Origin: Spirochaetia bacterium
GTDB taxonomy: Bacteria; Spirochaetota; UBA4802; UBA5550
Direction: 5' to 3'
DNA: 64,000 nucleotides
Assembly: GCA_009885955.1 (NCBI GenBank)
Contig: VFJS01000056.1
Location: 15,941-79,940 of the forward strand
Each line of letters opens with the position of its first letter. Position 1 is the first letter of the stretch. The notes under the pieces were generated by a model. The model was not told the DNA's origin. It did not search any database and was given only the letters and a program-made list of their open reading frames with translations. This document shows, piece after piece, positions 3,096-43,944 of the stretch. The position numbers were made by a program, and so were the translations under genes.

Positions 3096-3722
3096 TTATT
3101 TCCCGGTATGTATATCTGCTCCGCATATTGCTGCCATTTTAACCAGGTCGGGAAGTGATTTCGCCTTCATCCTGCTCATTATTTTTTTCCTGTGGATTTC
3201 TACTGTCCTGTGGCTTATGTTTATTTTTTCCCCAATCTCTTTATTGGAGTATCCAGAAACAATCAGATGCATTATTTCTTTCAGCCTGCCGGTAAGGTTA
3301 TTATACAGGGCTTCAATTTCTGATTTTTCACCATCAGATTTCCTGGTACCCAAATCCCTTGCAATGGCTGTCTGGATGAGTTCCATAAGAACCTGGGTCC
3401 TGAAGGGTTTTTCAAGGAAATCAACAGCACCGGCCTTCAGGGCCTGGACTGATTTTGGGACGTCGCCGTATCCTGTTATGAAAATAATGGGGATTTTGAT
3501 TTTTCTTTCAATGAGAATCTGTTGAAGTTCAAGGCCGTTTGTACCCGGCATGTCGATGTCCAGAACAAGGCAGCATGGATTCCCGGTATTATAGTTTTTG
3601 AGGAACTCGTCTGCCGAGGGATAATGTTCAACATCCATGCCCGTTGATTGTAAAAGCTGCGCAAGGCCTTCCCTGAAGGTATCTTCATTATCCACAATAT
3701 ATATTACTGATCTGTTTTCCAT
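3096..3722 (-). CDS. response regulator, REC plus LuxR/FixJ-type HTH
   Basis: N-terminal receiver domain (IYIVDNEDTF ... LDIDMPGTNGLEL) and C-terminal LuxR HTH (ISHRTVEIHRKKIMSRM). Confidence 0.9.
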   Translation of the reverse strand: MENRSVIYIVDNEDTFREGLAQLLQSTGMDVEHYPSADEFLKNYNTGNPCCLVLDIDMPGTNGLELQQILIERKIKIPIIFITGYGDVPKSVQALKAGAVDFLEKPFRTQVLMELIQTAIARDLGTRKSDGEKSEIEALYNNLTGRLKEIMHLIVSGYSNKEIGEKINISHRTVEIHRKKIMSRMKAKSLPDLVKMAAICGADIHTGK

Positions 3723-3929: not shown

Positions 3930-6900
3930 ATGATAAGAAGCAATCTCAAAGATTATTATAAATATGTAATTTTTGCAGTTTTTCTCCTGCTGCTGAGCAT
4001 CATTATACTCTTCAATCATAATTATGACCAGGGAATAAATTTTTTAAAAAAAGAATTCATGAAACAGCAGATGCTCATTGCAAGGCAGACTTCCGTCGGG
4101 ATTGAGGAAAACATCAAGTCACTGTCAAGGGTTCTTGCTAACATGGCAAAAAACCGGGCAGTGGCATCATCCGGTAAGCGGGCAATGGATTATTTTTTCA
4201 GGGAACAAGCAGAAGAATTGAAGAATTTTGATATTACCGATATCCTGGTAATTAATAACCGGGGGGTTGTATCCTATGTGCTAAATGCTGCTAACCTTTC
4301 CGGAAGGGGTTTCAGTTCGAGGAAATTTTTTACCGAAAGCTCTCATTTAAAGACCAATACCCCTGTGTATGATTTTTCCACCTATGGCGATATTGGAGAT
4401 CCCGGCAAGGATATAATTGTAGCAATGCCCCTTTTTTCTGAACTGAAAAATTTTAGCGGGGCTATTGTATGCGTTGTAAGGTCTGAAGAATTATTTAAAA
4501 AATTCATACCCGGGGATTCAGACGAAACTGTTTTCAATGTGATGGACAGGGACCTCAATGTTCTTTTCCATCATGGAGAAGAGGGCGGGTTTTCATCAAA
4601 ATTCGTGCTTCAGGATGAAGAGCATCAGAAGTCTTACAGGGAATTTATCAGGCAGCTGAAGAATGGTGACTCTTTCCAGATGGAATACTCCGCGCCTGAC
4701 GGGACCGGCAAAATTTCATCGGTTGCCGCAATTTCCCTGAATGGCTCCTCCATATCAATTGTTGTCACTACACCGGTAAGCTCTGTCTTAAACAGGCTCG
4801 ATCATATAACCGCAGAATTTATGACCTCGGCTGTTGCAGCCATAGTGGTGCTTTTCCTCTGTGCCGTGATTGTGATATTCTTTCTGGGCAGGTTCAATAG
4901 CAGGCTCATGAATGAAATCGGGAGCCGTGAGGAGGCAGAGACGGTACTACGGGAGGGTGAAGAGAGGTTCAGGGCGCTCTTTGACAAGGCATCGGACTGC
5001 ATATTTATGCTTGAGATCGATGAAACAGCCGGTCCAATGATAAAGGACATGAACATTGCCGCTTGTGAAGTTCACGGGTACAGGCGGGATGAAATAGCCG
5101 GTAAGCCTGTTAAATTTATCGCGCATCAGGATACGGTTAAAAGCTATTTCGCCAGTTTCATGAATCCGGTAAGCGGCGACGGGATCCGGTTTGAGGGGGA
5201 GCATCTCAGAATGGACGGTTCAGCTTTTCCGGTGGAAATATCAGCGCAGAGAATAAAACTCGGGGATAAACAGTATGCGATAGTAAGCTGCAGGGATTTA
5301 ACAAAGCAGAGAAGTGATGATATCATGATGAAAAGGTATCACGATGAACTTGAGCTCAGGGTCAGGGAGAGGACCAGTGAGCTGAGGGAGGCAAACAACC
5401 TGCTCCTCATGGAAATTATTGAAAGGAACAAAACTGAAGAGCTCCTGGTAAACCAGAACGAGCTTATAAAAAATACCCTTGAGGCCATTACTCATCCCTT
5501 TTATGTTGTTGATGTCAGGGATTACTCAGTCGTGATAGCTAATTCTGCAGCAAACAGCACTACTCTTAAACAGAAGTGGAAATGTTATGAACTGGTAAAG
5601 AAATTGAAAGAGCCCTGCTGCGGGGAGGACAATCCATGCCCCATCCTTGAAATTCAGAGGACAAAAAAGCAGGTGACCTATGAGCATATCCAGTATTCCC
5701 ATGATGAGAATGCGAAGTTCTACGAAGTGCACGGCTATCCCATTTTTGACCTGAAAGGGGAAGTCGTCCGGATAATTGAGTACATGATCGATATCACAGA
5801 TAGGAAACGCCTTGAGGACCAGCTCAACCAGTCGCAGAAGATCGAATCCATCGGGAGGCTTGCGGGAGGTATTGCCCATGATTTCAACAACCTTCTCTCG
5901 GTCATCCTGACCTACTGCGACCTGGCCGTGATAAAGATGGAAAAGACCCATCCTGCCATGGAGAGCATCAGGACCATCATGACCGCTGCGGAGAAAGCGG
6001 CGCAGCTTCCGAAACAGCTCCTTGCCTTCAGCAGAAAGCAGATGCTCAAGATGAGGGTCATCAGCCTTAACCTGGTAATTGACAGGATGATAACCATACT
6101 TGAGAGGATGATAGGCGGGGATATCCTCATAGAATTCCACCGAACCGGAGATCTGAGGAATGTAAAGGCCGATACAGGCCAGATAGAACAGATTCTGATG
6201 AACCTCGCGGTCAACGCAAGGGATGCAATGCCCCTCGGCGGGAAACTCCTGATTGAGACCGGCAATGCAGAAATTGACTCTTCCTATTCAAGAAAGCATG
6301 ATGGTGTATTCCCGGGTAATTATGCGTTGATATCGGTTACCGATACCGGGATCGGCATGAGCAGGAAAGTTCAGAAGAGGATATTTGAACCTTTTTTTAC
6401 AACAAAAAATGACATGGGTACCGGCCTTGGCCTGGCCACTGTTCATGGAATCGTCAAGCAGCATAGCGGGCATATCTCGGTCTACAGTGAGCCCGGTATA
6501 GGCACAACATTCAAGATATATTTACCAGCCACCACTGAGCCGGCTGAGGCAGTGATGCAGCAGGTTGAGAGCGCGGTGGAAAAAGGGAATGAGACAATCC
6601 TAATCGTCGATGATGATGCCTCTATCAGGAGTCTTGCCATAGACTCACTCAAACCCCTGGGCTACAACATACTCACAGCCTCCTCGGGGGAAGCGGCTGT
6701 AAAAAAATGTGAAGATGCCGGCCTGAGCATTCAGCTCCTACTCACCGATGTGATAATGCCGGGAATGAACGGCGGGGACCTTTCGGAAAATATCAGGAAA
6801 ATCATACCTTCCATAAAAATCATATTTACCTCGGGATATTCCAGCGACATCATATCCTCAAGGATACATATGGATGACGACAGGAATTTTATCCAGAAAC

Positions 6901-6953
6901 CTCTGACGCCGGGGAAGCTTGCAAGAAAAATACGGGAAGTCCTTGACACATGA
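3930..6953 (+). CDS. hybrid sensor histidine kinase (TM, periplasmic Cache-like, TM, PAS, HisKA, HATPase, REC)
   Basis: Two TM segments flank a roughly 270-aa periplasmic domain. PAS-like regions. H-box IAHDFNNLLSVI. G-boxes DTGIGM and GTGLGL. C-terminal receiver (ILIVDDDASIRS ... DVIMPGMNG). Divergent from the response regulator. Confidence 0.9.
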   Translation: MIRSNLKDYYKYVIFAVFLLLLSIIILFNHNYDQGINFLKKEFMKQQMLIARQTSVGIEENIKSLSRVLANMAKNRAVASSGKRAMDYFFREQAEELKNFDITDILVINNRGVVSYVLNAANLSGRGFSSRKFFTESSHLKTNTPVYDFSTYGDIGDPGKDIIVAMPLFSELKNFSGAIVCVVRSEELFKKFIPGDSDETVFNVMDRDLNVLFHHGEEGGFSSKFVLQDEEHQKSYREFIRQLKNGDSFQMEYSAPDGTGKISSVAAISLNGSSISIVVTTPVSSVLNRLDHITAEFMTSAVAAIVVLFLCAVIVIFFLGRFNSRLMNEIGSREEAETVLREGEERFRALFDKASDCIFMLEIDETAGPMIKDMNIAACEVHGYRRDEIAGKPVKFIAHQDTVKSYFASFMNPVSGDGIRFEGEHLRMDGSAFPVEISAQRIKLGDKQYAIVSCRDLTKQRSDDIMMKRYHDELELRVRERTSELREANNLLLMEIIERNKTEELLVNQNELIKNTLEAITHPFYVVDVRDYSVVIANSAANSTTLKQKWKCYELVKKLKEPCCGEDNPCPILEIQRTKKQVTYEHIQYSHDENAKFYEVHGYPIFDLKGEVVRIIEYMIDITDRKRLEDQLNQSQKIESIGRLAGGIAHDFNNLLSVILTYCDLAVIKMEKTHPAMESIRTIMTAAEKAAQLPKQLLAFSRKQMLKMRVISLNLVIDRMITILERMIGGDILIEFHRTGDLRNVKADTGQIEQILMNLAVNARDAMPLGGKLLIETGNAEIDSSYSRKHDGVFPGNYALISVTDTGIGMSRKVQKRIFEPFFTTKNDMGTGLGLATVHGIVKQHSGHISVYSEPGIGTTFKIYLPATTEPAEAVMQQVESAVEKGNETILIVDDDASIRSLAIDSLKPLGYNILTASSGEAAVKKCEDAGLSIQLLLTDVIMPGMNGGDLSENIRKIIPSIKIIFTSGYSSDIISSRIHMDDDRNFIQKPLTPGKLARKIREVLDT

Positions 6954-6993
6954 AATGGCTGGCCTAACATCTGATTATGAAGGGAATGTTTAA

Positions 6994-8010
6994 ATGAAAA
7001 AAGCGGAACATCTGTCAAAAAAAGATCTCCTGTCATGCATAGAACTGGGCAAGGCGATTGTCTCTGATCTGGATTCGGGCCGGCTCTTTGATATAATTTT
7101 GGGCAGATTGACAGAACTTATCCCAGCCGACAACTGGTCACTTATGCTCATAGATCATGAGACCGGGGAGCTCTGCTTCAACCTCTGCGCGGGAATAAAT
7201 ACCGAGGAGCTGAAAAATACAAGGCTGAAGCCCGGGGAGGGGATAGCTGGCAGGGTTGCCCTTGAACAGAAACCGGTTATTATTGAAGATGTGGCTGCAT
7301 GCGGATTTTTTTCAAACAGGATTGATGTGATTTCGGGATTCAGGACATCATCAGTCATATGCGTCCCTCTCATCATGCGCGGGGTCACGGTAGGTGTCCT
7401 GGAGGCGATCAATCCCTCAAGCCTTGCCGGCAGGGTCATTCTCCTCCTGAAACATATTGCTGACTACACGGCAATTGCCGTTGAAAACATGAGGCTCTTT
7501 CACAGCCTGGAAGTATTGGTTGATCATGACAATCTGACAGGTTTTTATAATACACGGTTTATGTACCGTGACCTTACTGAGAGGATTGAAATATGCAGGA
7601 AGGGTAACGGCAATTTTTCCCTTATTTTCATGGATATTGATAATTTCAAAAAAGTTGTTGAGCAGTACGGGCACATAAATGCAAGCAGGGCCATCAGGGA
7701 TGTGGCAGCGGCCGTCGCCGATATGCTCATGCCCCGGGAGTACTGTGTCAGTTATGCGGGGGATGAGTTTGTTATTGTAATACCGGATGCCGGCGGCGAT
7801 AAAGCCATGGCCCGGGCCGATGAGATGAGGCAGCGCCTGAGCGAAAAATCATTTATTGTGAAAACCGGTGTTTCGATAAAATTGAGCGCAAGTTTCGGCA
7901 TTGCCACATTTCCTCATGATGGCGATACCCTGGCCACACTTCTTTCAAGGGCGGACATCGCAATGTTTAATGCAAAGGATGCGGGGAAAAACAGCGTCAA
8001 ATCGTGTTGA
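6994..8010 (+). CDS. GAF-GGDEF protein (diguanylate cyclase-like, A-site reads AGDEF)
   Basis: N-terminal GAF domain. C-terminal GGDEF fold with motif YAGDEF in place of the canonical GG(D/E)EF. Confidence 0.85.
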   Translation: MKKAEHLSKKDLLSCIELGKAIVSDLDSGRLFDIILGRLTELIPADNWSLMLIDHETGELCFNLCAGINTEELKNTRLKPGEGIAGRVALEQKPVIIEDVAACGFFSNRIDVISGFRTSSVICVPLIMRGVTVGVLEAINPSSLAGRVILLLKHIADYTAIAVENMRLFHSLEVLVDHDNLTGFYNTRFMYRDLTERIEICRKGNGNFSLIFMDIDNFKKVVEQYGHINASRAIRDVAAAVADMLMPREYCVSYAGDEFVIVIPDAGGDKAMARADEMRQRLSEKSFIVKTGVSIKLSASFGIATFPHDGDTLATLLSRADIAMFNAKDAGKNSVKSC

Positions 8011-10440: not shown

Positions 10441-11376
10441 CTATTTAGCTTTTTTTTGATTAAGGACCGCCTGAATTTCAAGGTGATTGCTTTTCTGCAC
10501 AAAATTAATTATTCTTTCATCATCAATTTCAGCAAGCTCAAGGTATTCTTTCATATCAAGGGTAACAAGCTGCATCTTGTCAAAGGTAAAGTCGAAGATC
10601 TTGCTGAATTTCTCCCTTACTGCCGGATCTTGTTCAGCCTTGAGGGCCTTCACACAGCAGGCTATTACTCTGACAAAAATTTTTGGATTCAAAACAGCGG
10701 TATTAACCAGGAGGAGCTTTTCAAGAGGTGTATTTTTCAGTATTTCCGTCATTTTCTCGTCGCTGAATTTATATTGCTCAATCATCTGGTTTATTTCCCT
10801 GATTCTTTCTACACTGCTCGATTCAAGGAGTTTTACAACATATTCCGTCTTGTCTTTCGGGAGCATCATCTTGGTCTGGACATCCTCGCTGTTGCTCGTG
10901 GCCTCAATATAATCTGAAATTCTTTTATCATCGATTTCGGCAAGTTCAAGGAATTCCTCCTTGCCGAAGTTTATCATATGCAGCCTTTCGCATGCAATAT
11001 CCAGTATTCTACGGCATTTGTATTTAAGCTTTTCATCACTGCTTTTTTTAATGACATTTACGCAGCTGGCAATTATCCTTACAACCGCCTTGGGCCGTAT
11101 AATACTCAGGTTTATGCTGAGTATGCCGTTGATGGGGGCAAGTTTTATGATTTCGCCGAGGTTCATGCTGCTGAACTTGTAGGTCTCCATCAGCGCGTTT
11201 ATCTTTATTGTGCTTTCATCACTGCCTGATTTTATCAGCTCAACAACTTCATTAATTTTATCGTCGGGCAGCGGCGGCCTGACGGTTGCAGCAGTATATT
11301 TTTCTGTGCTGGTAGGTTTGAACATATCTCCTCCCGTTTTATATTCATGCCTGAATTCATGGCTTACTACAGCCAT
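10441..11376 (-). CDS. hypothetical protein made of two tandem ~140-aa internal repeats
   Basis: Repeat 1 (..YKFSSMNLGEIIKLAPINGILSINLSIIRPKAVVRIIASCVNVIKK .. EEFLELAEIDDKRISDYIEA) aligns with repeat 2 (..YKFSDEKMTEILKNTPLEKLLLVNTAVLNPKIFVRVIACCVKALKAE .. KEYLELAEIDDERIINFVQK). Confidence 0.5.
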   Translation of the reverse strand: MAVVSHEFRHEYKTGGDMFKPTSTEKYTAATVRPPLPDDKINEVVELIKSGSDESTIKINALMETYKFSSMNLGEIIKLAPINGILSINLSIIRPKAVVRIIASCVNVIKKSSDEKLKYKCRRILDIACERLHMINFGKEEFLELAEIDDKRISDYIEATSNSEDVQTKMMLPKDKTEYVVKLLESSSVERIREINQMIEQYKFSDEKMTEILKNTPLEKLLLVNTAVLNPKIFVRVIACCVKALKAEQDPAVREKFSKIFDFTFDKMQLVTLDMKEYLELAEIDDERIINFVQKSNHLEIQAVLNQKKAK

Positions 11377-11464: not shown

Positions 11465-13132
11465 CTATTTTTTTATTTTTTCCAGTTCCATTGCCCTCAG
11501 TTCCCTTCTCAGTATTTTTCCAATGTTACTCTTGGGGAGTGAGGATATGAATTCAACCACTCTCGGGACTTTATACTTTGCCAGCTGTCCGCTGCAGTAT
11601 TCAATCACTTCACCGGCAGTCATGGTTTCACCCTCTTTCAGGACAATAAATACCTTTACGGTCTCACCCCGGTAATCATCGGGAATTCCAATGGCGCATG
11701 CTTCAAGGATTTTCGGGTGCTCAAAGAGTATTTCATCTATGTCCCTTGGATAAATGTTGAAACCGCCGGCTATTATCATATCTTTTTTCCGGTCAACGAT
11801 ATACAGGTAGCCTTCGTCATCAAATTTTCCAATGTCGCCGGTGTAGAGCCATCCGTCTTTGAGCACCATGGCCGATTCGTCGGGCATCTTGTAATAGCCT
11901 TCTGTGACCTGATGGCCCTTGATTATCACCTCACCGCTTTCACCGTTCGGCAGCTCCCTGGAACCGTCCTCCAGATCTACAATTTTTATGTCAGTATCGA
12001 AAATGGGGAGCCCCACTGAGCCGGGCTTGGTTATTCCGCCAAGGGGATTTATTGTCACAACAGGGCCGGTTTCAGAAAGGCCGTAGCCCTCGCATATCTG
12101 CGAACCTGTCTTGCCTTCGAACTCCTTTATCACCTCCACTGGCAGCGGCGCAGCGCCTGAAAAGCATCCTTCTATCGATGATATGTCGTACTTTGAAAGC
12201 CCGGGGTAGTTGAGTAAACCGATGTAAATTGTTGGTACAGCAGGAAAGAAGTTGATTCTATACTTCTGGATTGCCTCCAGGATTGTTTTTGTTTCCGGCC
12301 GGGGGATCATGATAATTGTGGAACCGTGCCACAGGCAGTAGTTCATGACGCATGTCAGGCCGAAGGAATGAAAGAACGGTAGCACACCCAGCATTGTCAT
12401 TTCACCCCTATTGTATTGTGGAAACCATTGTAACAGGTGCTGTATATTATAAGAAAAATTTTTATGTGACATCATGACACCCTTGCTCACGCCGGTGGTG
12501 CCGCCGGTATATTGAAGATTGGCCAGGGAATTGATATCAGGCCTTATCCCCGGGTTAGTTGACGGATATTTTTTTAAAAGGCCCATCCATTCGTAGACGT
12601 CCTTCTGGGGCGGGATCTCCCTGTGCTTGCTTTTTGCAACAATAGGCAGCAGCTGTTTTTTCGGGAATTTCAGGTGGTCCCGTATATGTGCAATGATGAT
12701 TTTCTCCACCCCGGTTTTTTTTCTGAGGGCAATCATCCTCGGCCCGAGAAGGTCAATTGTCACAAGTACTTTTGTCCCGGAATTATTCAGCTGATATTCC
12801 AGTTCATGGTCGGTATAGAGCGGGTTGTTCATGACAACTACGGCGCCTGCCTTCCATGCTCCATAGGTGGCTATGACAATCTGGGGCATATTCGGCATCA
12901 GCATTGCCACCCTGTCCCCAGGTTTTACCCCGAGGTCTATGAGGGCATTGGCGAAGCTGTTGACCATATCATTTAATTTAGCATAGGTTATAGCGCTGTC
13001 AAGAAAGATGAGAGCAGATTTCTCAGGGAATTCCTTTACGCTTAAAGAAAAAGCTTCAATAAGCGTAGTATCCTTGTAATTCAGGCTTTTCGGTATGCCC
13101 GGCGCATAGGATCCATGCCACAATTTTTCCAT
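11465..13132 (-). CDS. long-chain-fatty-acid--CoA ligase / AMP-dependent acyl-CoA synthetase
   Basis: AMP-binding motif YTGGTTGVSKGVMMSHKN. Adenylate-forming core (GYGLSETG), C-terminal lid. Confidence 0.9.
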   Translation of the reverse strand: MEKLWHGSYAPGIPKSLNYKDTTLIEAFSLSVKEFPEKSALIFLDSAITYAKLNDMVNSFANALIDLGVKPGDRVAMLMPNMPQIVIATYGAWKAGAVVVMNNPLYTDHELEYQLNNSGTKVLVTIDLLGPRMIALRKKTGVEKIIIAHIRDHLKFPKKQLLPIVAKSKHREIPPQKDVYEWMGLLKKYPSTNPGIRPDINSLANLQYTGGTTGVSKGVMMSHKNFSYNIQHLLQWFPQYNRGEMTMLGVLPFFHSFGLTCVMNYCLWHGSTIIMIPRPETKTILEAIQKYRINFFPAVPTIYIGLLNYPGLSKYDISSIEGCFSGAAPLPVEVIKEFEGKTGSQICEGYGLSETGPVVTINPLGGITKPGSVGLPIFDTDIKIVDLEDGSRELPNGESGEVIIKGHQVTEGYYKMPDESAMVLKDGWLYTGDIGKFDDEGYLYIVDRKKDMIIAGGFNIYPRDIDEILFEHPKILEACAIGIPDDYRGETVKVFIVLKEGETMTAGEVIEYCSGQLAKYKVPRVVEFISSLPKSNIGKILRRELRAMELEKIKK

Positions 13133-13472
13133 ATTCCATCTCCCTGCAGTAAATTTGATAAAAAACTATACAATTACAATGAAATACTCTATCAGGGTAA
13201 GCACAATTGTTTATATTATAAAACATAGATAAAAAAATTGTCAACAAGTATATGAGCATTAAATGGCGCTATAAAGATTTACCTGAATATTTTATAAAAT
13301 TATCATTTATAAGTATATTTACTTATTGACTTTTATTAGTTATTCATAAATTGTACCCTGTCTGAATGCTATAAAATTTATATAGTACAGCTTTTATATG
13401 GATTCAATGATCATTTCAATATTCTAAAGTCATAATTATTTTTAAAGAAACAATTTTCAAGATTTTGATATT

Positions 13473-14813
13473 TTGAGGTATAAAATTGTGGAATGTCAGC
13501 GCAATATCATAAGAATATTAAGGTTACTGATTTTTTATTCTCTGTTTACCATCATTAATCCGGGGCAAGGCGAGGCTGCATCTAATTACAGCGGCTCTCT
13601 GGAGACTGCAGCATATACCTACAGTACAATGAAAAAAGATCTCAGCGGCACAGAGACAAATTACAGGCTCTATGAAAATGTTCTGTTCGATTTTAAATTT
13701 AATGACAGGGTGAGTTTCAGTACCAATAACAGGGTTATATACAGGGGCCTTGAAACCAGGAAAGATGCAAATGAGGATCCTCAAAGGCTGGACCTCAACA
13801 ACTACTATACATATTTTGACTTTAAAATCAGCGATTCTTTCAGCAGTCAGGTCGGGCGTATCATGGATGTGAACAACCTTGTTTTTTCCTACTATGACGG
13901 AATCAATGTCATCTATAAAAAGAAGTTCGGGGAGTACAGGCTCGGATTAAACATATATGGCGGCCTCCTGGTAGATGATGATTATCTTGAGGATGATAAC
14001 AGGGTATATGGATATAACAGCTTCGATGTACGAAATTTTTATATAGAACAGAGAAAGGGTGATTACATAAGCGGCGCTAAATTAAATCTTGCATCGAATA
14101 AAATCGGCGTCTTTACCCTGGATTACCAGACCACCATGAATGACAAGGCCATGGCTGAAAATTACGTCTCCATTGACTTTGACACCATGTTTTCAAAGCT
14201 GTTCAAAGCCTACGGCTACGGGACCTACGACATTGTTGACAAGAAATTATCCAATGGGCTTGGCGGGATGAGGCTATCACCGGGGAATCTTATTTCACTA
14301 TCGGCTGAGTATCAATATTACAGGCCCGTCTTTATTAAGGACAGTTTTTTCTGGGTCTACTTCACGCCGTACGGCCACCATGCGGTAACCGGTTCGCTGC
14401 TCCTCTTCTTTACACCAATTATAACATTTGATGTTAAATATTCCAGGCTGATTTTTGAAGGGGCCAATGAAACAGGCGATGAATTTTCAGCATCACTGGA
14501 AGACCGGAGCATCCTGGGATTCGGAATATTGATAACCGGCAGCGGCCTTAAAAGTCCCCTCGGAGACAAATACACCGGCCTGTGCACAATCAAAAGGCGC
14601 TTTTTTAATATTCTGGACATCAGCGTCGGCGGAGGTGCTGTATATTTTGATGAAACTCCTGAATCAACTATCCTGTCCAAGGCCTATGTGGGAAGAGCCG
14701 GTATCGGTCTCAGGATGGGCAATCTTATTATATCAGGAGACGCGGAATATTTTAACAATCCCAAATATAAGTATGATACCAGGGCCATCGTATCAGCTAA
14801 ATTTATATTTTAA
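13473..14813 (+). CDS. putative outer-membrane beta-barrel (porin-like) protein
   Basis: Signal-like N-terminus. Alternating aromatic/hydrophilic amphipathic beta pattern throughout, rich in Y/G/N/D. Ends with a C-terminal Phe (..AKFIF). Its stop is 16 bp before the multiheme cytochrome gene. Confidence 0.55.
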   Translation: MRYKIVECQRNIIRILRLLIFYSLFTIINPGQGEAASNYSGSLETAAYTYSTMKKDLSGTETNYRLYENVLFDFKFNDRVSFSTNNRVIYRGLETRKDANEDPQRLDLNNYYTYFDFKISDSFSSQVGRIMDVNNLVFSYYDGINVIYKKKFGEYRLGLNIYGGLLVDDDYLEDDNRVYGYNSFDVRNFYIEQRKGDYISGAKLNLASNKIGVFTLDYQTTMNDKAMAENYVSIDFDTMFSKLFKAYGYGTYDIVDKKLSNGLGGMRLSPGNLISLSAEYQYYRPVFIKDSFFWVYFTPYGHHAVTGSLLLFFTPIITFDVKYSRLIFEGANETGDEFSASLEDRSILGFGILITGSGLKSPLGDKYTGLCTIKRRFFNILDISVGGGAVYFDETPESTILSKAYVGRAGIGLRMGNLIISGDAEYFNNPKYKYDTRAIVSAKFIF

Positions 14814-14828
14814 CACAGGATAGAACTT

Positions 14829-16439
14829 ATGAAAAGATTTCACAGATATCTGTTTTCCATACTATTGATAATCGGCATATCCGCCACACTCCTTTTTTCC
14901 CAGAAGGAGAAAATTTTTCCTCATAAGACCCATAAAGACAACGGCGTGGACTGCGTGACCTGCCATCCCAATGCCAAAAAAAGTGTAAAGGCCGCCGATG
15001 ACCTTCTCCCGAAAGATGACGGTGTCTGTTCAAAGGAGTGCCATGACAAGGGCTTTTTGAGAAAGACAAAAATGTTCCGGTCAAAACCTGAATACGGCCT
15101 CAAATTTAATCACCAGGTCCATGTGGAGCAGGATCTGAAATGCATAAAATGCCACAAGGGGGTTGATGAAGCCGCATTCAAGACCGGTACAGCATTTCCA
15201 GGCATGAAGCTCTGTTTTGAATGCCATGATGATAAGAATGCCCCGAAGACATGCACCCTGTGTCATGTTGATAAAGTCCCGTTTGTTCACAAAGCCCATG
15301 CTGAAAAGAAAATTGACTGCAAAGTATGCCATAAGAAAGTTGATAAAAGCACCAAAACAAAAGACAATAACCTCCCCGATCCGGGGCTTTGCCTTGAAAA
15401 ATGCCATAAGCGGGATACCCTTGCTGTTACAAAGATGACCCTTTTCCCTGAAAAATCAAAGATAATTTTCAACCACCAGGTACATCTCGACCAGGATATT
15501 AAATGTATTCTCTGCCATGATGGCCTGGAAAAAGCTGCCTACAAAACCGGTACGGCATTTCCGAAAATGTCAGTCTGCTTTAAGTGCCATAACAACAAGG
15601 ATGCTCCGAAAAAATGTACCCTTTGCCACAGTGAGCCTGAGCAGTTCCCCCACGTTACCCATATCAAGAATGGACTTGACTGCGCAGGATGCCACAAGAC
15701 TATAAAAGTAAGCACAACAACCACCGGGGGGAGGGACATCCCGAAAAAAGAAATATGCAATGAGTGCCATGAAGCAAAGGACAAATATTCCGACGTGGTA
15801 TCGTTGCCTTATAAGCAGACATACCATTTCAACCACAAGGTGCATGTCACCGGCCAGTCGCTTGACTGCAAAGAGTGCCACAAGGTATTGTATGAGAAGA
15901 ACAGGTTTAGCCAGGCTGAAAACTTACCGAAAATGGAGTATTGTTTCGGATGCCACGACAATTCAACGGCCACACAGTACTGCATGCTTTGCCACCTGAA
16001 TCCGACCAAACCAAAGGACCATTATTTCGACTGGGGTACTATACATAAAGCAAAGGGAAACAGCGATCTGAAAGATTGTATATCGTGCCACATGAGTAAA
16101 AATTTCTGCATTTCCTGCCACAAGGGGATAAAGAAACCTGAAAATACTCATAATTCAAATTTTGAGATTACCCACAAGTTCGAAGCCAGGTCAAGTTTAA
16201 AAAACTGCTTCTCATGCCATACGGAGAGGCAGTGCAGGAACTGCCATATATCCAATAAGATCAGCATGAGCAGTTCGGAGCAGTATAAAAATCCCCATCC
16301 CTCAGGGTGGATAGACAGGACCAGCCCGAATTTTCATAAGAAACAGGCAAAGATGAATCTCAGGTCCTGCACCGCATGCCATACGAAAAATGACTGCGGA
16401 TTCTGCCATATCCCCCTGGGGCCTATAAAGAAGCGGTAA
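14829..16439 (+). CDS. multiheme cytochrome c (about 19 CxxCH plus 2 CxxxCH motifs)
   Basis: Sec signal peptide. Reiterated modules of paired heme-binding sites (CVTCH, CIKCH, CFECH, CTLCH, CKVCH, CILCH, CFKCH, CAGCH, CNECH, CKECH, CFGCH, CMLCH, CISCH x2, CFSCH, CRNCH, CTACH, CGFCH, and others). Confidence 0.9.
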   Translation: MKRFHRYLFSILLIIGISATLLFSQKEKIFPHKTHKDNGVDCVTCHPNAKKSVKAADDLLPKDDGVCSKECHDKGFLRKTKMFRSKPEYGLKFNHQVHVEQDLKCIKCHKGVDEAAFKTGTAFPGMKLCFECHDDKNAPKTCTLCHVDKVPFVHKAHAEKKIDCKVCHKKVDKSTKTKDNNLPDPGLCLEKCHKRDTLAVTKMTLFPEKSKIIFNHQVHLDQDIKCILCHDGLEKAAYKTGTAFPKMSVCFKCHNNKDAPKKCTLCHSEPEQFPHVTHIKNGLDCAGCHKTIKVSTTTTGGRDIPKKEICNECHEAKDKYSDVVSLPYKQTYHFNHKVHVTGQSLDCKECHKVLYEKNRFSQAENLPKMEYCFGCHDNSTATQYCMLCHLNPTKPKDHYFDWGTIHKAKGNSDLKDCISCHMSKNFCISCHKGIKKPENTHNSNFEITHKFEARSSLKNCFSCHTERQCRNCHISNKISMSSSEQYKNPHPSGWIDRTSPNFHKKQAKMNLRSCTACHTKNDCGFCHIPLGPIKKR

Positions 16440-16539
16440 TGTCGTGATGATGTATTAAAATTTAATCGTTCTGTTTTTTTTCTCTTGACTTGCGGATTAT
16501 GATAATTATTTTGATTTTCTAAATTTCAATTATTAATAC

Positions 16540-17277
16540 GTGAAAGAGGCTTTTATGATCAAGATTCAAAAAAGGGTGATATTTATATCCGCTATTATTT
16601 TCAGTTCTGTTCTGGCTTTTTCAGGAACCATCTATGCTTTGAAAGTCGTCATGAACGGGACTCCGCAAAAAAATGGTTTCAGGGACGACGTATTTACAAA
16701 TCTTAAAAGGGCTCAATGTGAGACATGCCACGGTGCTTCCCTGGCTGACAGGCACCATCAGCTCAAATCCGGGGCATCAAAAAATTGCAGCGGGTGCCAC
16801 GCAATCAATAACAAGTCCGGTGAAATGGGGGTAAATTTAAAGAAAGAATGTTCAGATTGTCATAAAGTCAGCCCTCACCACAAGACAAAAGCCGCTGTTG
16901 AAAAAAAATGCAGGGAGTGCCATGAATCATCAGGGGTAAGCGAATTCAAAATGCAGGGCCCGGAATATAAATTTTCAAAAATTACCCCGACCGTTAATTC
17001 CTGTTCTAAATGCCACAGGGCCGGTGATGTCGGCGGAGGCAGGGTTTATGGAATGAAGGATACCCATCACGGGACTCAGATCCAGGACTGCAATATGTGC
17101 CATGATGAAAACAAATCCAACACGAGCATCAGGGTGTGTGAAAGATGTCATGACGTTAAGGCTTTACATGCTGTAGAGGGCCACATCAAGAGCGAAAACT
17201 GCGCGCATTGCCATGATATGGAGGAGAAACAGCCAAATTCAAAATATGATGAACCGGTAAAAGAGTTAAAACAATAG
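16540..17277 (+). CDS. octaheme cytochrome c
   Basis: Signal peptide plus 8 CxxCH motifs (CETCH, CSGCH, CSDCH, CRECH, CSKCH, CNMCH, CERCH, CAHCH). Confidence 0.85.
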   Translation: MKEAFMIKIQKRVIFISAIIFSSVLAFSGTIYALKVVMNGTPQKNGFRDDVFTNLKRAQCETCHGASLADRHHQLKSGASKNCSGCHAINNKSGEMGVNLKKECSDCHKVSPHHKTKAAVEKKCRECHESSGVSEFKMQGPEYKFSKITPTVNSCSKCHRAGDVGGGRVYGMKDTHHGTQIQDCNMCHDENKSNTSIRVCERCHDVKALHAVEGHIKSENCAHCHDMEEKQPNSKYDEPVKELKQ

Positions 17278-17304
17278 CATACTTTTTTTAGAGACAATGA
17301 TACA

Positions 17305-17337
17305 AGCCCTCCATTGGAAAATGGAGGGCTTTTTTTG
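17305..17337 (+). terminator. rho-independent terminator after the cytochrome operon
   Basis: Perfect hairpin AGCCCTCCATT-GGAAA-ATGGAGGGCT followed by TTTTTTT. Confidence 0.6.
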
Positions 17338-17466
17338 TTAATTAAATCATTGACTTTGCAGGAATATGTTTGAACACTATCAATTGGATATCAATATACA
17401 TTATAAAAGGGTATTTTTAGTGACGGATATTTCAAAAACAGCCATAAAAAAAATGAGGGGTTCACC

Positions 17467-23753: not shown

Positions 23754-26042
23754 TTGCCGCGGCCTGCTGGAAATAGTACATTAATAAAACCAGGGAAATT
23801 ATTCAGCAGATTGATATCATACAATCAGCCCGTTAAAAAGGAGAATGTATTAATGGACCCAGTATGCTACAAGGACAAGAATGTAACGGCCAGTTACTAC
23901 TGCGCAAAATACAGCAGGTACCTTTGTGAGAACTGCCTTGCCTGCCAGGATCCGACAATATACTGCAAATTCCGCAAGATGTGTATGATATGGGAAGTCA
24001 TAAGATTCGGCACTCCGGAGATGCAGGAAAAGGCTGTTTCAAACCTGTTAAAGGATAAACCAAATCTTGCCGCAGATGTAAAGCCCGCGGCTGAAATAAA
24101 AGGGGCTGATAAGGCTGAATCAGCTGAAATAGTATTTCTTCCCAATAACAGGGGCTTCAAGGTGGAATCGGGTAAAACTATTCTTGAAGCCGCAAGGGAC
24201 AATGAAATTTATATAAATGCCAGGTGCGGGGGGAAAGGGGTCTGCGGCAGCTGCAGGGTAAAGATCCTGGAGGGCAGGGCTGATATCAAGGGCACAACCC
24301 ATCTGACTAAAGAAGACATTGACATGGGTTACGTCCTTGCCTGCACTACAAAAATTACGGGCAGCATTACAGCCGAGGTCCCTGAAGAAAACAAGGCCAG
24401 GGCGCTTAAAATTGTTGAGGAAGGATTTAAGATCAGGGAAAAGCTCCTTGCCGGGAAAACGGCTACACCCTTTGTTTCGGTATATCACCTGGAATTGCCT
24501 GCTCCCACTCTGGACGACCCGTCAAGTGATCTTGACAGGGTAAACAAGGTTTTAAAAATCCATGGCGTAGACTGCGACGCAAACTGCATAAGCCTTCCGG
24601 CTCTTGCGGAACTGTCATCGGACTTGAGAAGATATAACTGGAAGGTCAATATCACACTCCTTGACAGGGGATACTCCAGGGAGATAATCAGGACAACACC
24701 TTATGATACCGAAAGGAAGCATTACGGCCTTGCAGTGGACATGGGTACAACCTCTGTTGTGGCCTATCTTGTTGATCTCACGAATGCCGAAGTGGCCGGC
24801 GTAGCATCGACCCAGAACAGGCAGGTGGTCTTCGGTGAGGATGTCATATCCAGGATTATAAGCGCAAAGGGGGCCGAGGGGCTTGAGAGGCTCCATGGGT
24901 ATGCGATGAAAACCATTAATGGCCTTATCAACGAACTGGTCACCGTGGGGAAGATACACAGAAGGGACATCCTCTCCTTTGTTGTCGCGGGAAATACCGT
25001 AATGACCCAGTCGGTCCTTAAGCTCGACCCGAGCAGCATAAGGACCGAGCCCTATGTCCCGGTTGCAGTCAGGTTCCCCATATGGCAGGCCAGGGACATT
25101 GGCCTGGACATTCACCCCCATGGCGGCGTTTTCGTTGTGCCGGGAAATGCCGCCTATGTCGGGGGGGACATCACAGCCGGCATCATTGCCTCGGGCCTTA
25201 ATACGAAGGAAAACATAACCCTTTTCATCGATGTGGGGACAAACGGCGAGATGGTACTGGGCACCAAAAACTGGATGATGACGGCCTCCTGTTCCGCGGG
25301 ACCCGCGTTTGAAGGGGGCGGAATCCGTCACGGGATGAGGGCGCTTCCGGGAGCCATTGACGATGTTACCATTGATCCCGTGTCGCTTGAGCCGTCAATC
25401 AGCGTAATCGACGGCTTCCCTCCCGCGGGAATCTGCGGCAGCGGCATGATTTCCCTCATAGGCTCGCTTTATCTTGCCGGGATACTCGATTCCTCGGGGA
25501 AATTCAACGAAAATCTCATGACTGACAGGGTGGCCTCTGATGAATACGGCAAGAGGTACATCATTGCCAGGGAGAAGGACTCGGGAATCGAAGAGGACAT
25601 CTTCCTGGCAGAAAGCGATATCGCAATCCTGATCCAGAGCAAGGCCGCCATATACAGCGGATTCATGACCCTCCTTAAAAGCGCAGGTGTGACAATCAAT
25701 GAGGTGAACGAGTTCCTCATCGCCGGGGGTTTCGGGAGATATATTAATTTTAAAATGGCCATACTGATGGGGCTCCTCCCAGATATTGATCTGGAAAAAT
25801 TTAAATATCTTGGAAACAGCTCAATAGCCGGGGCCTATCTTGCCCTGGTCTCGGCGGATATCAGGAAAGAGCTCTGCGAGATATCGAAAAAAATGACCTA
25901 TGTCGATTTTTCATCATCAACGCTATTTTATGACGAGTACAGGCAGGCCATGTTTCTTCCGCATACCGATGTTAAAAGTTTTCCCAGCGTCATGGAGATA
26001 GTCAATGATAATAAGAAACTTCAGAAGAAGCGGCAGGTATAA
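23754..26042 (+). CDS. RACo-like reductive activase of corrinoid proteins (2Fe-2S ferredoxin plus ASKHA ATPase/DUF4445), with an extra N-terminal Cys-rich segment
   Basis: Plant-type ferredoxin motif CGGKGVCGSCRVK. ASKHA nucleotide-binding segments (GLAVDMGTTS, IDVGTNGE, GGFG). The real start may be the internal MDPVCYKDKN. Confidence 0.75.
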   Translation: MPRPAGNSTLIKPGKLFSRLISYNQPVKKENVLMDPVCYKDKNVTASYYCAKYSRYLCENCLACQDPTIYCKFRKMCMIWEVIRFGTPEMQEKAVSNLLKDKPNLAADVKPAAEIKGADKAESAEIVFLPNNRGFKVESGKTILEAARDNEIYINARCGGKGVCGSCRVKILEGRADIKGTTHLTKEDIDMGYVLACTTKITGSITAEVPEENKARALKIVEEGFKIREKLLAGKTATPFVSVYHLELPAPTLDDPSSDLDRVNKVLKIHGVDCDANCISLPALAELSSDLRRYNWKVNITLLDRGYSREIIRTTPYDTERKHYGLAVDMGTTSVVAYLVDLTNAEVAGVASTQNRQVVFGEDVISRIISAKGAEGLERLHGYAMKTINGLINELVTVGKIHRRDILSFVVAGNTVMTQSVLKLDPSSIRTEPYVPVAVRFPIWQARDIGLDIHPHGGVFVVPGNAAYVGGDITAGIIASGLNTKENITLFIDVGTNGEMVLGTKNWMMTASCSAGPAFEGGGIRHGMRALPGAIDDVTIDPVSLEPSISVIDGFPPAGICGSGMISLIGSLYLAGILDSSGKFNENLMTDRVASDEYGKRYIIAREKDSGIEEDIFLAESDIAILIQSKAAIYSGFMTLLKSAGVTINEVNEFLIAGGFGRYINFKMAILMGLLPDIDLEKFKYLGNSSIAGAYLALVSADIRKELCEISKKMTYVDFSSSTLFYDEYRQAMFLPHTDVKSFPSVMEIVNDNKKLQKKRQV

Positions 26043-38875: not shown

Positions 38876-39094
38876 ATGAAAATAATAATTAATGGAAAAG
38901 AAGATTCAATAACTCCTTTGGATGGGAAGATAAATATTAACGAACTTCTTGCAATAAAAAATGTTGAAATGCCGGATATGGTATCGGTAGAACTGAATGA
39001 AGTTATATTGAACAGGGCCGATTTCGTTAATACCTTTATAAATCATGGTGATAGGGTGGAATTCCTCTATTTCATGGGCGGAGGGGCTGCCTGA
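38876..39094 (+). CDS. ThiS/MoaD-family sulfur carrier protein with a C-terminal extension after Gly-Gly (..FMGGGAA)
   Basis: 72-aa beta-grasp-sized protein. Ends in GG followed by extra residues (G)AA, as in CysO/HcyS-type carriers that need JAMM processing. Confidence 0.7.
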   Translation: MKIIINGKEDSITPLDGKININELLAIKNVEMPDMVSVELNEVILNRADFVNTFINHGDRVEFLYFMGGGAA

Positions 39095-39134
39095 GATTAA
39101 CCCCTGGTTTAGGGTAAAACTATGGAGGCTGAGT

Positions 39135-39962
39135 ATGGATTTTACAGAAGAACAGGTTGAGAGGTACAGCAGAAACATCCTTCTTGATGATGTGGGCGGC
39201 ACAGGCCAGAGGAAGCTCCTCGATTCCAGCGTCCTGATAATAGGCGCCGGCGGGCTTGGATCTCCGGCTGCGCTTTATCTGGCAGCTGCCGGCGTGGGCA
39301 CTATCGGAATTGTTGATGATGACCATGTTGAGCTCTCAAATCTGCAGAGGCAGGTAATCCACTTTACTTCGGATATCAGCAGGCCCAAGGCCGAATCGGC
39401 AGCGGAAAAGATGAGGCTCCTCAATCCCGGTGTAACAGTCATCCCTGTCATGGAGAGGCTCATGGCCGGGAACATAGTATCAGTCATAAAGGATTATGAC
39501 TTCATCATCGACGGCACCGATAATTTTCCTTCCAAGTTCCTCATTAACGATGCCTGCGTGCTTGGAGGAAAACCATTTTCCCATGGCGGCATCCTGAGGT
39601 TCTACGGGCAGACCCTGACCTATGTGCCGGGGTCAGCATGCTACCGGTGCCTCTTTCAGACTCTGCCGCCCAGGGGGACTGTCCCTTCATGCGGTGAAGC
39701 CGGCATACTTGGCGTGGTGGCCGGTATCCTCGGGATGATCCAGGCATCGGAAGCGCTCCGGTACATCCTGGGCATCGGGGAGCTCCTCACCAACAGGCTC
39801 CTGTATATGGACCAGCTTACCGTGGAGTTCAGGAAACTGAATACAAAGCCCAACCCCAACTGCCCGGTGTGCGGCGAAAACCGCACCATTCTTGAGCCAG
39901 TGGACTATGAACAGCCGGCCTGCAGTTTGAAAGAGGGGCCTGCCGCAAAGGTAAACCTTTGA
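39135..39962 (+). CDS. ThiF/MoeB-family E1-like adenylyltransferase (no rhodanese domain)
   Basis: RBS GGAGG then ATG at 39135. Nucleotide-binding GAGGLGSPAALYLAAAGVG. Zinc motif CYRC .. CPVC. Confidence 0.85.
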   Translation: MDFTEEQVERYSRNILLDDVGGTGQRKLLDSSVLIIGAGGLGSPAALYLAAAGVGTIGIVDDDHVELSNLQRQVIHFTSDISRPKAESAAEKMRLLNPGVTVIPVMERLMAGNIVSVIKDYDFIIDGTDNFPSKFLINDACVLGGKPFSHGGILRFYGQTLTYVPGSACYRCLFQTLPPRGTVPSCGEAGILGVVAGILGMIQASEALRYILGIGELLTNRLLYMDQLTVEFRKLNTKPNPNCPVCGENRTILEPVDYEQPACSLKEGPAAKVNL

Positions 39963-39990
39963 TGATGATCATAAGAAGAGGAGCATAAAG

Positions 39991-42702: not shown

Positions 42703-42735
42703 AAATAAAAATAAAATCGTAAAAAGGCGGATTCA

Positions 42736-42963
42736 ATGGTTGAACAGCGCTGCAGAAGCATAGTCAAAACTCTATCGTGGAGAATAACAGGTACGATAGC
42801 TACCACACTGATATCCTTCCTGATAACCGGGAGCTTTGCCTTTGCATTATCAATAGGAACCTTTGAGTTTATCGCAAAAATGTTCCTCTACTATTTTCAT
42901 GAAAGGCTCTGGAACAGGATTAACCTGGGAAGGACTGCTCCGAAGAATGACTATCAGATATGA
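42736..42963 (+). CDS. DUF2061-like small membrane protein
   Basis: 75 aa, two TM helices. TLSWRITGT .. FLITGS pattern. Confidence 0.4.
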   Translation: MVEQRCRSIVKTLSWRITGTIATTLISFLITGSFAFALSIGTFEFIAKMFLYYFHERLWNRINLGRTAPKNDYQI

Positions 42964-43065
42964 TCATTTTAGAAAAAATACAATTTGCCACAGAGGCTCA
43001 GAGACACAGAGAAATGGTAATGGATTTAATAAAGGCTGGAATAAGTCAGTCATGAAGAAAGAAAT

Positions 43066-43088
43066 TACTCACGGATTTGCACGGATAA
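43066..43088. promoter_or_regulatory. TCACGGATTCA-family motif, site d
   Basis: TACTCACGGATTTGCACGGATAA about 120 bp upstream of cysH. Confidence 0.3.
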
Positions 43089-43134
43089 ACATGGATAAAA
43101 TTGAATATGAATGATATCAATATTTGGAAAAAAA

Positions 43135-43168
43135 AATCCGTGAAAATCTGTGTGAATCCGTGAGCAAA
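43135..43168. promoter_or_regulatory. TCACGGATTCA-family motif, site e (inverted relative to site d)
   Basis: Reverse complement reads TTGCTCACGGATTCACACAGATTTTCACGGATT. About 40 bp upstream of cysH. Confidence 0.3.
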
Positions 43169-43203
43169 TATCAAAAACTGAAAAGTTCAATTGGATAAAG
43201 ATT

Positions 43204-43944
43204 ATGATAATGCCTGAAGATTTGAAATCATTGCAGAGAGAGTTTTCCGGTGCAAAGCCCCGGGAGCTGCTTGAACACTTCATGAAGATACACGGTTCCC
43301 GGATAGCCCTTGCATCGAGCCTGGGGGCTGAAGACCAGGCCCTGACACACATGATGCTGGGGATAGACCCCGGGGCAGTGATATTCTTCATCGATACCGG
43401 TAGGCTCCATCAGGAAACCTATGATACTGCTGCGAAGACCATGAAAAGATACGGCATGAGATACCAGGTCTTTTTTCCTGACAACAAGAGGGTCGAGGAG
43501 ATGACCGGCGCCCACGGGCCAAATTTATTTTATGAGTCCGTGGCGCTGAGGGAGACATGCTGCCAGGTAAGAAAAGTTGAACCCCTGGAAAGGGCCCTCT
43601 CGAATATGGATGCATGGGTCACTGGCCTGCGCAGGGAACAGTCCCCTGCAAGGGCCGGACTGGAAGTCATTGAGTGGGACCCGGCGCGGAAGATGGTAAA
43701 GCTGAACCCCCTGGCATCATGGAGCAATGAGGAGCTCTGGAGCTACATCAGGGAACATGCGGTACCGTACAACAGCCTCCATGACCGCAACTTCCCCAGC
43801 ATAGGATGTGCGCCCTGCACCCGGGCAATAGGGGAAGGCGAAGATACACGGGCAGGGAGATGGTGGTGGGAGGATTCAGGGGAAAAAGAATGCGGCCTCC
43901 ATGTAAAGAGTCAAGAAACAGATGACAGGGGGGGATCGATATGA
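43204..43944 (+). CDS. cysH: adenylyl-sulfate (APS) reductase, thioredoxin-dependent, Fe-S type (CysH family)
   Basis: PP-loop SLGAEDQAL. Cys pair CC (ETCCQVRK) plus CAPC for a [4Fe-4S] cluster. C-terminal KECGLH catalytic motif. Confidence 0.85.

Follow-up and report, generated by a model that had tools for sequence, protein, structure and literature searches.

Do three adjacent genes of an uncultured spirochaete form a route for electrons across the outer membrane, and which of the two cytochromes that they encode would stand inside the membrane pore and which beyond it? The genes lie in a 64,000-nucleotide stretch of contig VFJS01000056.1 from a Spirochaetia bacterium (assembly GCA_009885955.1), which as a whole is called the window here. 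They encode a predicted outer-membrane beta-barrel, a cytochrome c with 21 haem motifs and an OmcZ-like cytochrome with eight (the octahaem cytochrome). Porin-cytochrome conduits are a known route by which diderm bacteria respire minerals, electrodes and partner cells. We put at roughly two in three the probability that the three genes are such an electron conduit, of a non-Mtr type and at work in an anaerobe, a judgement made from sequence. Its distinctive features would be a new barrel family, a modular 21-haem wire, an OmcZ homologue within the operon and the host phylum itself; in the literature searched, no porin-cytochrome or OmcZ system was found described for the Spirochaetota. The features of the locus are as follows.

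13133..13472, no strand assigned: AT-rich divergent intergenic region, presumed operon promoter/leader (340 bp, 22% GC)
13473..14813, plus strand: barrel gene (446 amino acids, C terminus ...AKFIF; open reading frame list)
14829..16439, plus strand: 21-haem cytochrome gene (536 amino acids; open reading frame list)
14919..16013, plus strand: three tandem 5-haem modules of the 21-haem protein (residues 31-152, 153-273 and 274-395)
16014..16436, plus strand: C-terminal 6-haem domain of the 21-haem protein (three CxxCH-x5/6-CxxCH pairs)
16440..16539, plus strand: AT-rich gap before the octahaem gene (23% GC)
16540..17277, plus strand: OmcZ-like octahaem cytochrome gene, short form (245 amino acids; open reading frame list)
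17304..17337, plus strand: intrinsic terminator at the operon end (stem and T-run)

The three genes run in the same direction and lie exactly where the original prediction, made from the bare sequence, had placed them. Its haem counts also stand: 19 CxxCH and 2 CxxxCH motifs make 21 in the 536-residue protein, and the 245-residue protein has 8 CxxCH. Twenty-nine haem motifs in two neighbouring open reading frames cannot be chance. By the same motif count, the barrel has none and CxxCK is absent from all three proteins. The N-termini of the proteins were judged by eye, and each is signal-like and lacks a lipobox Cys; this includes the large cytochrome, for which a Sec signal had been claimed. 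Shine-Dalgarno-like sequences and public gene calls favour later starts for two of the genes. The probable start of the barrel is a GTG at 13488 with GAGG upstream, which gives a protein of 441 amino acids identical to database protein P0001, and that of the octahaem cytochrome is an ATG at 16555 with AAGAGG upstream, which gives 240 amino acids in agreement with P0034.

The barrel and its cytochrome neighbour

The first protein had been proposed as an outer-membrane barrel ending in Phe, and structure prediction agreed with this rather than with a soluble periplasmic protein. An AlphaFold2 model built on a 6-sequence alignment contains a signal helix and 22 beta strands (predicted local distance difference test score, pLDDT, 67.6; predicted template modelling score, pTM, 0.57). 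The best 50 of 275 Foldseek matches to the PDB (E<=0.001) were all outer-membrane barrels; those listed include the FimD and PapC ushers, MOMP, chitoporin, AlgE and Occ channels, at template modelling scores (TM-scores) of ~0.4-0.5 and ~10% identity, and MtrB (6r2q) was not among the 50. Searches of the protein against Pfam and NCBIfam gave no match at E<=1, and a profile of the barrel found nothing among PDB sequences. As modelled, then, the barrel is a generic large outer-membrane barrel that can be assigned to no specific family. Its C-terminal [YF]-x-F is invariant across close homologues. The predicted 22 strands correspond to a C-alpha diameter of ~40 A by the standard barrel-geometry formula and fall inside the range of 18-22 given for the porins of Geobacter porin-cytochrome (Pcc) systems (PMC4245776). 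Only two loops are long (residues 167-197 and 284-301). Both are low-confidence parts of the model, and 50-55% of their positions are invariant vs 24% in the strands. Under standard outer-membrane protein topology they would face the extracellular side, and they may line the lumen or bind a partner.

The Sec-exported, predicted outer-membrane barrel thus described belongs to a new and very rare family. A word-indexed search of 5.8 billion proteins found 6 homologues. When 1.84 billion cluster representatives were searched exhaustively with a profile, there were 27 relatives, none of them a named protein and 11 of them below 1e-30. A scan of species genomes gave 8 barrel loci, all titled as metagenome-assembled genomes (MAGs) of Spirochaetota, Spirochaetes or Leptospirales. 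What these rare loci have in common is the neighbour. A homologue of the 536-residue cytochrome lies directly 3' of the barrel gene in the window and in related loci L004, L005, L010-L015, L017 and L018, and nearly every relative examined, down to E 1e-4, has a non-lipoprotein multihaem cytochrome in this place. The adjacency is kept from relatives at 57% identity to those at E 1e-4, with differing flanks. At the far end of this range, L036 (E 1.4e-4, a full-length match) has a barrel, a 12-haem non-lipoprotein and a 7-haem lipoprotein cytochrome in that order, and in L037 the barrel is followed by a 7-haem cytochrome; in L016, ~1 kb separates a 576-amino-acid barrel from a 32-haem cytochrome, and ResB and CcsA are close by. 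Of the triplet, for which a search in related genomes had been advised, the barrel-cytochrome pair is what recurs; the OmcZ-like third gene is absent from many barrel loci. Closer to the window, panB, purH-like, folB and folE genes flank the cluster in the window, L004 and L005 alike, so that the cluster has been inherited vertically in this lineage. The synteny of L005 is interrupted only by a group II intron reverse transcriptase gene (RVT_1 and GIIM; 12150-13379) between the OmcZ-like gene and panB. A Nitrospiraceae locus, L019, was considered as a related system and rejected: the 506-amino-acid protein upstream has neither a match to the barrel profile nor a C-terminal Phe, and its cytochrome is a distant homologue.

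The relatives also carry lipoprotein cytochromes, which vary from locus to locus. Multihaem cytochromes of one family, with a lipobox and 4-32 haems, lie upstream of the barrel in L005, L010, L012-L015 and L018, and L011 has a partial member in the same place. In L017 the lipoprotein, with 30 haems, is downstream of the barrel, and the contig edge of L004 cuts into the C-terminal end of a multihaem cytochrome placed upstream, like the lipoproteins of L005. Upstream of the window barrel there is instead the acyl-CoA synthetase gene on the opposite strand, and tblastn of the window with the lipoprotein cytochromes of the relatives gave no match beyond the two cytochrome genes and no pseudogene remnant. 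Since the neighbour is conserved and the lipoproteins change, we take the core of the system to be the barrel and the repeat cytochrome, with the surface lipoprotein and the OmcZ-like protein as accessories; this fits a conserved core of a barrel with an inserted cytochrome and a changeable outer component. Some of the lipoprotein cytochromes are giants with 12-32 CxxCH motifs and up to 1323 amino acids (L005 2384-7650; L010 5919-9739; L017 8599-12276; L016 8894-12865), and several have a ...C-[DA]-AS-[DR]-CH motif right behind the lipobox.

The conserved partner is built of repeats. In the 21-haem protein, a signal peptide (residues 1-24) without a lipobox is followed by three 5-haem modules of 2 + 3 haems each and by a C-terminal domain of 141 residues; Ser24 is invariant in an L-[YF]-S context that would suit signal peptidase I. 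Homologues with 11, 16 and 21 haems have one, two and three modules, and the C-terminal 6-haem domain is present in all. Modules 1 and 2 are 49% identical, vs 36-37% between either of them and module 3, which makes tandem duplication the origin of the extra module. Tandem c7 triheme domains are recognised by family models: TIGR04257 (nanowire_3heme) scores 68.7 bits vs a cutoff of 40 and matches 6 stretches of the protein, and Cytochrome_C7 (PF14522) scores 103 bits. Its best relatives in the PDB are GSU1996 of Geobacter, which has 12 haems (3ov0_A, E 1.8e-14), and ActA (E 1e-7 to 1e-10), the pentahaem subunit of Alternative Complex III. GSU1996 is reportedly periplasmic and ~12 nm long; ActA faces the periplasm, and so does the hexahaem QrcA, which the protein also resembles. 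The N-terminal 15 haems of our protein resemble GSU1996 and ActA in being made of c7-type triheme units with matching spacing. In contrast to GSU1996, the repeat unit has 5 haems (2 + 3) rather than 3, there is an extra 6-haem C-terminal domain, and the gene is fixed beside an outer-membrane barrel. The QrcA model reaches only 75 bits vs a cutoff of 180, and the protein is thus not a QrcA/ActA equivalog; the DmsE and HmcA models are likewise far under their cutoffs. A search of the C-terminal 6-haem domain against the PDB at E<=10 gave a chance match only, and the domain has no solved relative there. With 41 His, one of them within the signal peptide, at least 2 of the 21 haems are not bis-His, and an invariant Met before the fourth motif of each 5-haem module is a candidate haem ligand.

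These properties bear on the roles that the original prediction had given to the cytochromes, in which the large one was the counterpart of the outer cytochrome OmcB. The absence of a lipobox, the c7 domains of periplasmic type, the 5-haem spacing like that of ActA and the position as invariant barrel neighbour, directly after the barrel gene, all speak for the other side of the membrane. They make the 21-haem protein a better candidate than the octahaem cytochrome for a periplasmic wire inserted into the barrel. The gene order, described at first as different from that of Geobacter, becomes the order ombB-omaB-omcB (PMC4589669) once the roles are reassigned in this way.

The octahaem cytochrome inside or outside the cell

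The third protein had been seen as a periplasmic cytochrome of OmaB type, a view that homology replaces with another. A phmmer search of the PDB matched it to two entries of the OmcZ nanowire, 8d9m_A (E 2e-19) and 7lq5_A (E 2.2e-19), with 36% identity across 195 columns. The alignment covers seven of the 8 haem motifs, along with the distal His (HH, PHH, THH, LH), and the eighth motif comes directly after it. By sequence the protein is a homologue of the OmcZ haem core, sharing with the Geobacter sulfurreducens protein the octahaem core, the motif order and the distal His. It is a short form, with 17 His and a mature length of ~215 residues, and ends ~20 residues past the last haem. Three OmcZ insertions are missing, among them the CX14CH loop, in whose place there is a plain C83-S-G-C-H motif; the loop sits at the OmcZ filament's N-terminal interface (PMC9473688). 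There is also no C-terminal extension like the immunoglobulin-like (Ig-like) domains that OzpA removes from OmcZ. Where OmcZ has the adjacent OzpA protease, no gene for an OzpA-type subtilisin protease or peptidase was found among the annotated neighbours.

A metagenome scan with an alignment of the short form gave 14 loci, of which only the closest, L022, follows a repeat cytochrome. Others among the loci have NHL/beta-propeller genes, ResB and additional multihaem cytochromes as neighbours. In L025 (3514-4767), an OmcZ-like octahaem domain (43% identity) is joined through an acidic, charged linker of ~45 residues to an OmpA-family domain (PF00691, E 7.5e-25). Such a domain binds peptidoglycan, and the octahaem part of L025 must therefore be periplasmic, an argument from sequence that some of the short-form clade, at least, is so too. 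A peptidoglycan-tethered multihaem cytochrome like that of L025 was not found described in the literature covered.

We slightly favour a place outside the cell, as a surface or filament cytochrome. This rests on the homology to OmcZ, the sole characterised homologue and an extracellular protein (PMC9473688), on the position of the gene in the operon, which is that of omcB, and on the lack of any other candidate outer cytochrome at the window locus. The same conduit with the octahaem cytochrome as a periplasmic relay, possibly at the peptidoglycan, feeding the 21-haem wire, is a possible arrangement to which we would give appreciable though lesser weight. Contact at the cell surface would then fall to the 21-haem protein through an exposed tip, the arrangement of the two-component PioAB and MtoAB systems, or to a lipoprotein cytochrome encoded elsewhere. 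The OmpA fusion of L025, which fixes that homologue in the periplasm, favours this placement, as do the missing lipobox, interface loop and prodomain and the missing protease gene; so do the lipoprotein cytochromes of sister loci, since those upstream in L005, and the one whose C-terminal end is seen in L004, could take the surface role. The octahaem protein could thus be periplasmic for a reason other than the proposed likeness to OmaB.

Conduit function and competing arrangements

The closest layout among known systems is that of the Pcc and Ext clusters of Geobacter (e.g. ExtABCD). As in OmbB-OmaB-OmcB, a barrel gene, a non-lipoprotein multihaem cytochrome and a second cytochrome follow each other in order, and L036, with its final lipoprotein, reproduces the ombB-omaB-omcB order. 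The barrel agrees with a Pcc porin in its 22 predicted strands and in the cytochrome next to it, an adjacency that nearly all relatives keep as well. The OmbB/OmaB/OmcB family itself was defined by BLAST at E<0.01 (PMC4245776). A lipoprotein multihaem cytochrome like OmcB is missing from the window and is present in L005, L010, L012-L015, L017, L018 and L036. The periplasmic cytochromes of Pcc systems have 5-14 haems (PMC4245776), whereas the partner here has 21 (11 or 16 in relatives) and is modular and of c7 type. A further difference is the OmcZ homologue inside the operon; in Geobacter, ExtABCD is genetically linked in function to OmcZ on electrodes (PMC12307469). The 2014 survey of Pcc clusters covered six phyla, and Spirochaetota was not among them.

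With MtrCAB, MtoAB and PioAB the locus shares a common logic, namely a multihaem wire sheathed by a barrel, a conserved barrel-cytochrome pair and a variable outer partner. MtrA is embedded in a 26-strand MtrB (PMC12133095). The barrel here has 22 predicted strands instead, and the MtrB/PioB models were included in the family searches that gave no match at E<=1. The MtrA/DmsE model (TIGR03508) scores 47.4 bits vs a cutoff of 192 and the MtrC/OmcA model (TIGR03507) 28.1 vs 209. Both are families of decahaem cytochromes, the latter lipoproteins, whereas the cytochromes here have 21 and 8 haems and no lipobox. As neither the barrel nor the cytochrome models recognise the proteins, the module is not a member of the Mtr family. 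By its description, the OetABI system of syntrophic sulfate reducers is also like this cassette, in that a porin is combined with a periplasmic and an extracellular cytochrome, often beside putative filament cytochromes with which cooperation has been proposed (PMC10553843); its hosts are Desulfobacterota, and its filament candidates are OmcS- or OmcX-like rather than OmcZ-like.

Under the conduit reading, the conserved C-terminal 6-haem end of the 21-haem protein would lie inside the barrel, much as MtrA does in MtrB and OmaB in OmbB, and the variable stack of 5-haem modules would extend into the periplasm. There the modules may receive electrons from soluble carriers or a quinol dehydrogenase. 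Next in the relay would come the octahaem protein, either within the periplasm or, slightly favoured, at the surface or in a filament as OmcZ is; in close relatives the giant lipoprotein cytochromes upstream would be the classical surface component. Sequence does not determine the direction of flow, which could be inward as well as outward, in the latter case to minerals of Fe(III) or Mn(IV), to humics, to electrodes or to partner cells.

Several points weigh against the conduit. The octahaem gene stands ~100 bp away from the others and may have its own promoter, and most other short-form octahaem loci are not beside the barrel family; the OmpA fusion of L025 makes both the location of the octahaem protein and its functional tie to the barrel uncertain. 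The barrel model is of moderate confidence, with the 6-sequence alignment behind it, and AlphaFold2 of the 21-haem protein on an 11-sequence alignment gave an unusable model (pLDDT 39, pTM 0.18). No inner-membrane quinol dehydrogenase, cytochrome-maturation or ccs genes, or surface lipoprotein cytochrome were found in the 64-kb window, and the organism is known from MAGs only.

The direction of flow could be reversed under the same architecture, with which uptake is compatible. As with PioAB and MtoAB, the donor would then be Fe(II), Fe(0), a cathode or a syntrophic partner, and its electrons would feed a reductive metabolism, for example Wood-Ljungdahl acetogenesis. Multihaem conduits of the Mtr and Pio type are reversible in principle, and an AcsV gene in the window and a RACo-type protein near the L004 locus would suit such a metabolism. 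We nevertheless consider inward flow unlikely: the sequence gives no sign of direction, OmcZ and c7-type cytochromes are best known from outward transfer, and neither a Cyc2-type nor any other marker of Fe(II) oxidation was seen in the window.

A more ambitious version of the conduit, to which we give a small probability, would be a self-contained spirochaete wiring. A c7-type wire adjustable in length (11, 16 or 21 haems as 5-haem modules are gained or lost) would span much of the wide, flagella-containing periplasm, plug its 6-haem tail into the new 22-strand barrel and hand electrons directly to minimal, protease-independent surface filaments of OmcZ type. If true, it would give the phylum Spirochaetota its first case of extracellular electron transfer by nanowires. 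Even the simpler conduit would alter the part assigned to common organisms of anoxic sediments in syntrophy and in the cycling of iron, sulfur and carbon, in a lineage that also has an accessory gene of the acetyl-CoA pathway. The natural 11-, 16- and 21-haem variants on one barrel type offer a ready system for the question of how distance across the periplasm is spanned. With an OmcZ homologue, a barrel and a periplasmic wire in one operon, the coupling of nanowire and conduit, open in Geobacter work, becomes directly testable.

The barrel might instead be an usher-like pore that secretes and anchors a filament of OmcZ type, with the 21-haem protein charging the base of the filament from the periplasm. 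The top Foldseek matches are indeed the usher barrels FimD and PapC, and the octahaem protein is homologous to OmcZ. A preprint also reports that most nanowire regions of OmcE and OmcS have genes for large beta-barrels, and it proposes porin-mounted filaments (bioRxiv 10.1101/2025.10.22.684050). This arrangement is improbable in our view. The TM-scores to ushers are only 0.45-0.5 at ~10% identity, the extra domains of ushers are all absent, many loci of the barrel family are without any OmcZ-like gene, and the octahaem protein lacks the CX14CH loop of the OmcZ filament interface.

Still less probable is the mapping of the original prediction, with an OmaB-like octahaem protein in the periplasm and the 21-haem protein as an extracellular, OmcB-like cytochrome. 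Eight haems is the number of OmaB (PMC4245776), and one OmcZ-like homologue is periplasmic. Set against this, the 21-haem protein lacks a lipobox, and in relatives the surface role has lipobox cytochromes of its own; the domains of the 21-haem protein are of the periplasmic c7, GSU1996 and ActA type, and its family, not that of the octahaem protein, is the invariant neighbour of the barrel. What survives of the original prediction is the module, through the barrel prediction, the cytochrome linkage and the lack of a reductase signature, and not its assignment of roles.

That there is no conduit at all, and that the cytochromes store electrons in the periplasm or serve a reductase beside an unrelated diffusion porin, is very improbable: the barrel belongs to no functionally characterised family and weak, sub-threshold matches to NrfH, NrfB, QrcA and HmcA exist, but these are far under the curated cutoffs and reflect generic haem-motif similarity, CxxCK and a catalytic subunit are both absent, and the barrel and cytochrome genes stay adjacent across the whole range of relatives despite differing flanks. 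A periplasmic reductase of nitrite or sulfite type, which had been named as the alternative to be checked, was rejected, with no catalytic haem motif or reductase family found and scores of 18.6 vs 134 bits for NrfH and 16.8 vs 167 for NrfB.

DNA signals and neighbouring genes

The tight linkage described at first for the three genes holds for the barrel and the 21-haem cytochrome, which are 15 bp apart. The octahaem gene follows after 100-115 bp of AT-rich sequence (23% GC), and this gap has a weak promoter-like site at 16485-16512 (TTGACT-16-TATTTT, 9 of 12 consensus positions, a consensus match only). The clean terminator reported downstream was found again: its 12-bp stem includes 6 G-C pairs and closes on a 4-nt loop, and a T-run follows (17304-17331; minimum free energy -21.5 kcal/mol for 17296-17345). 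So was the 340-bp AT-rich leader, with 22% GC vs 46% for the whole window. This intergenic region presumably holds the promoter or leader of the operon and also the promoter of the acyl-CoA synthetase gene on the opposite strand. A perfect sigma-70 sequence, TTGACA-18-TATAAT on the minus strand (13244..13215), faces the latter gene; promoter-like sites on the plus strand (13278-13319) are weak only, and none is comparably good for the cytochrome operon. An Rfam scan of the whole window gave zero matches, so that no riboswitch or leader RNA is evident, and an alignment of the leaders of the window, L004, L005 and L018 had no common conserved element.

The genes around the operon indicate an anaerobic life; they encode AcsV, 2-oxoacid:ferredoxin oxidoreductase and a flavodiiron protein, together with assimilatory sulfate reduction. 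The AcsV/RACo-type corrinoid activator gene of the Wood-Ljungdahl pathway lies ~6 kb from the operon in both the window (23754-26042, plus strand) and L004 (9496-10228), and hints at an acetogenic or acetate-oxidising metabolism in the lineage.

Possible regulators of the module are encoded upstream. A 1007-amino-acid hybrid histidine kinase (PAS, HisKA, HATPase and receiver domains) and a GAF-GGDEF diguanylate cyclase (3930-8010, plus strand) lie ~5 kb from the operon, and a LuxR-type response regulator is encoded at 3096-3722 (minus strand); any of these could act on it. Between them and the barrel, a gene at 10441-11376 (minus strand) encodes a protein of 311 amino acids that has no Pfam or NCBIfam match and consists of two duplicated halves of ~150 residues, each ending in ...EYLELAEIDD[KE]RI... 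Its position is kept in L001 and L002.

Farther downstream, a ThiF-family E1-like gene (39045-39962, plus strand) is followed by a 903-amino-acid fusion of a JAMM/desampylase-like N-terminal part, a NirA/CysI-type sulfite/nitrite reductase and a YedF/TusA-like C-terminal part (region 39045-42702). Two genes with PAPS-reductase domains and a CysN/CysC fusion continue the region to 46654. Over the whole of 39045-46654, a ubiquitin-like sulfur-carrier system is unusually coupled with assimilatory sulfite reduction. A stand-alone fliG (51456-52472, plus strand) lies outside any flagellar operon, beside a DEAD-box helicase gene.

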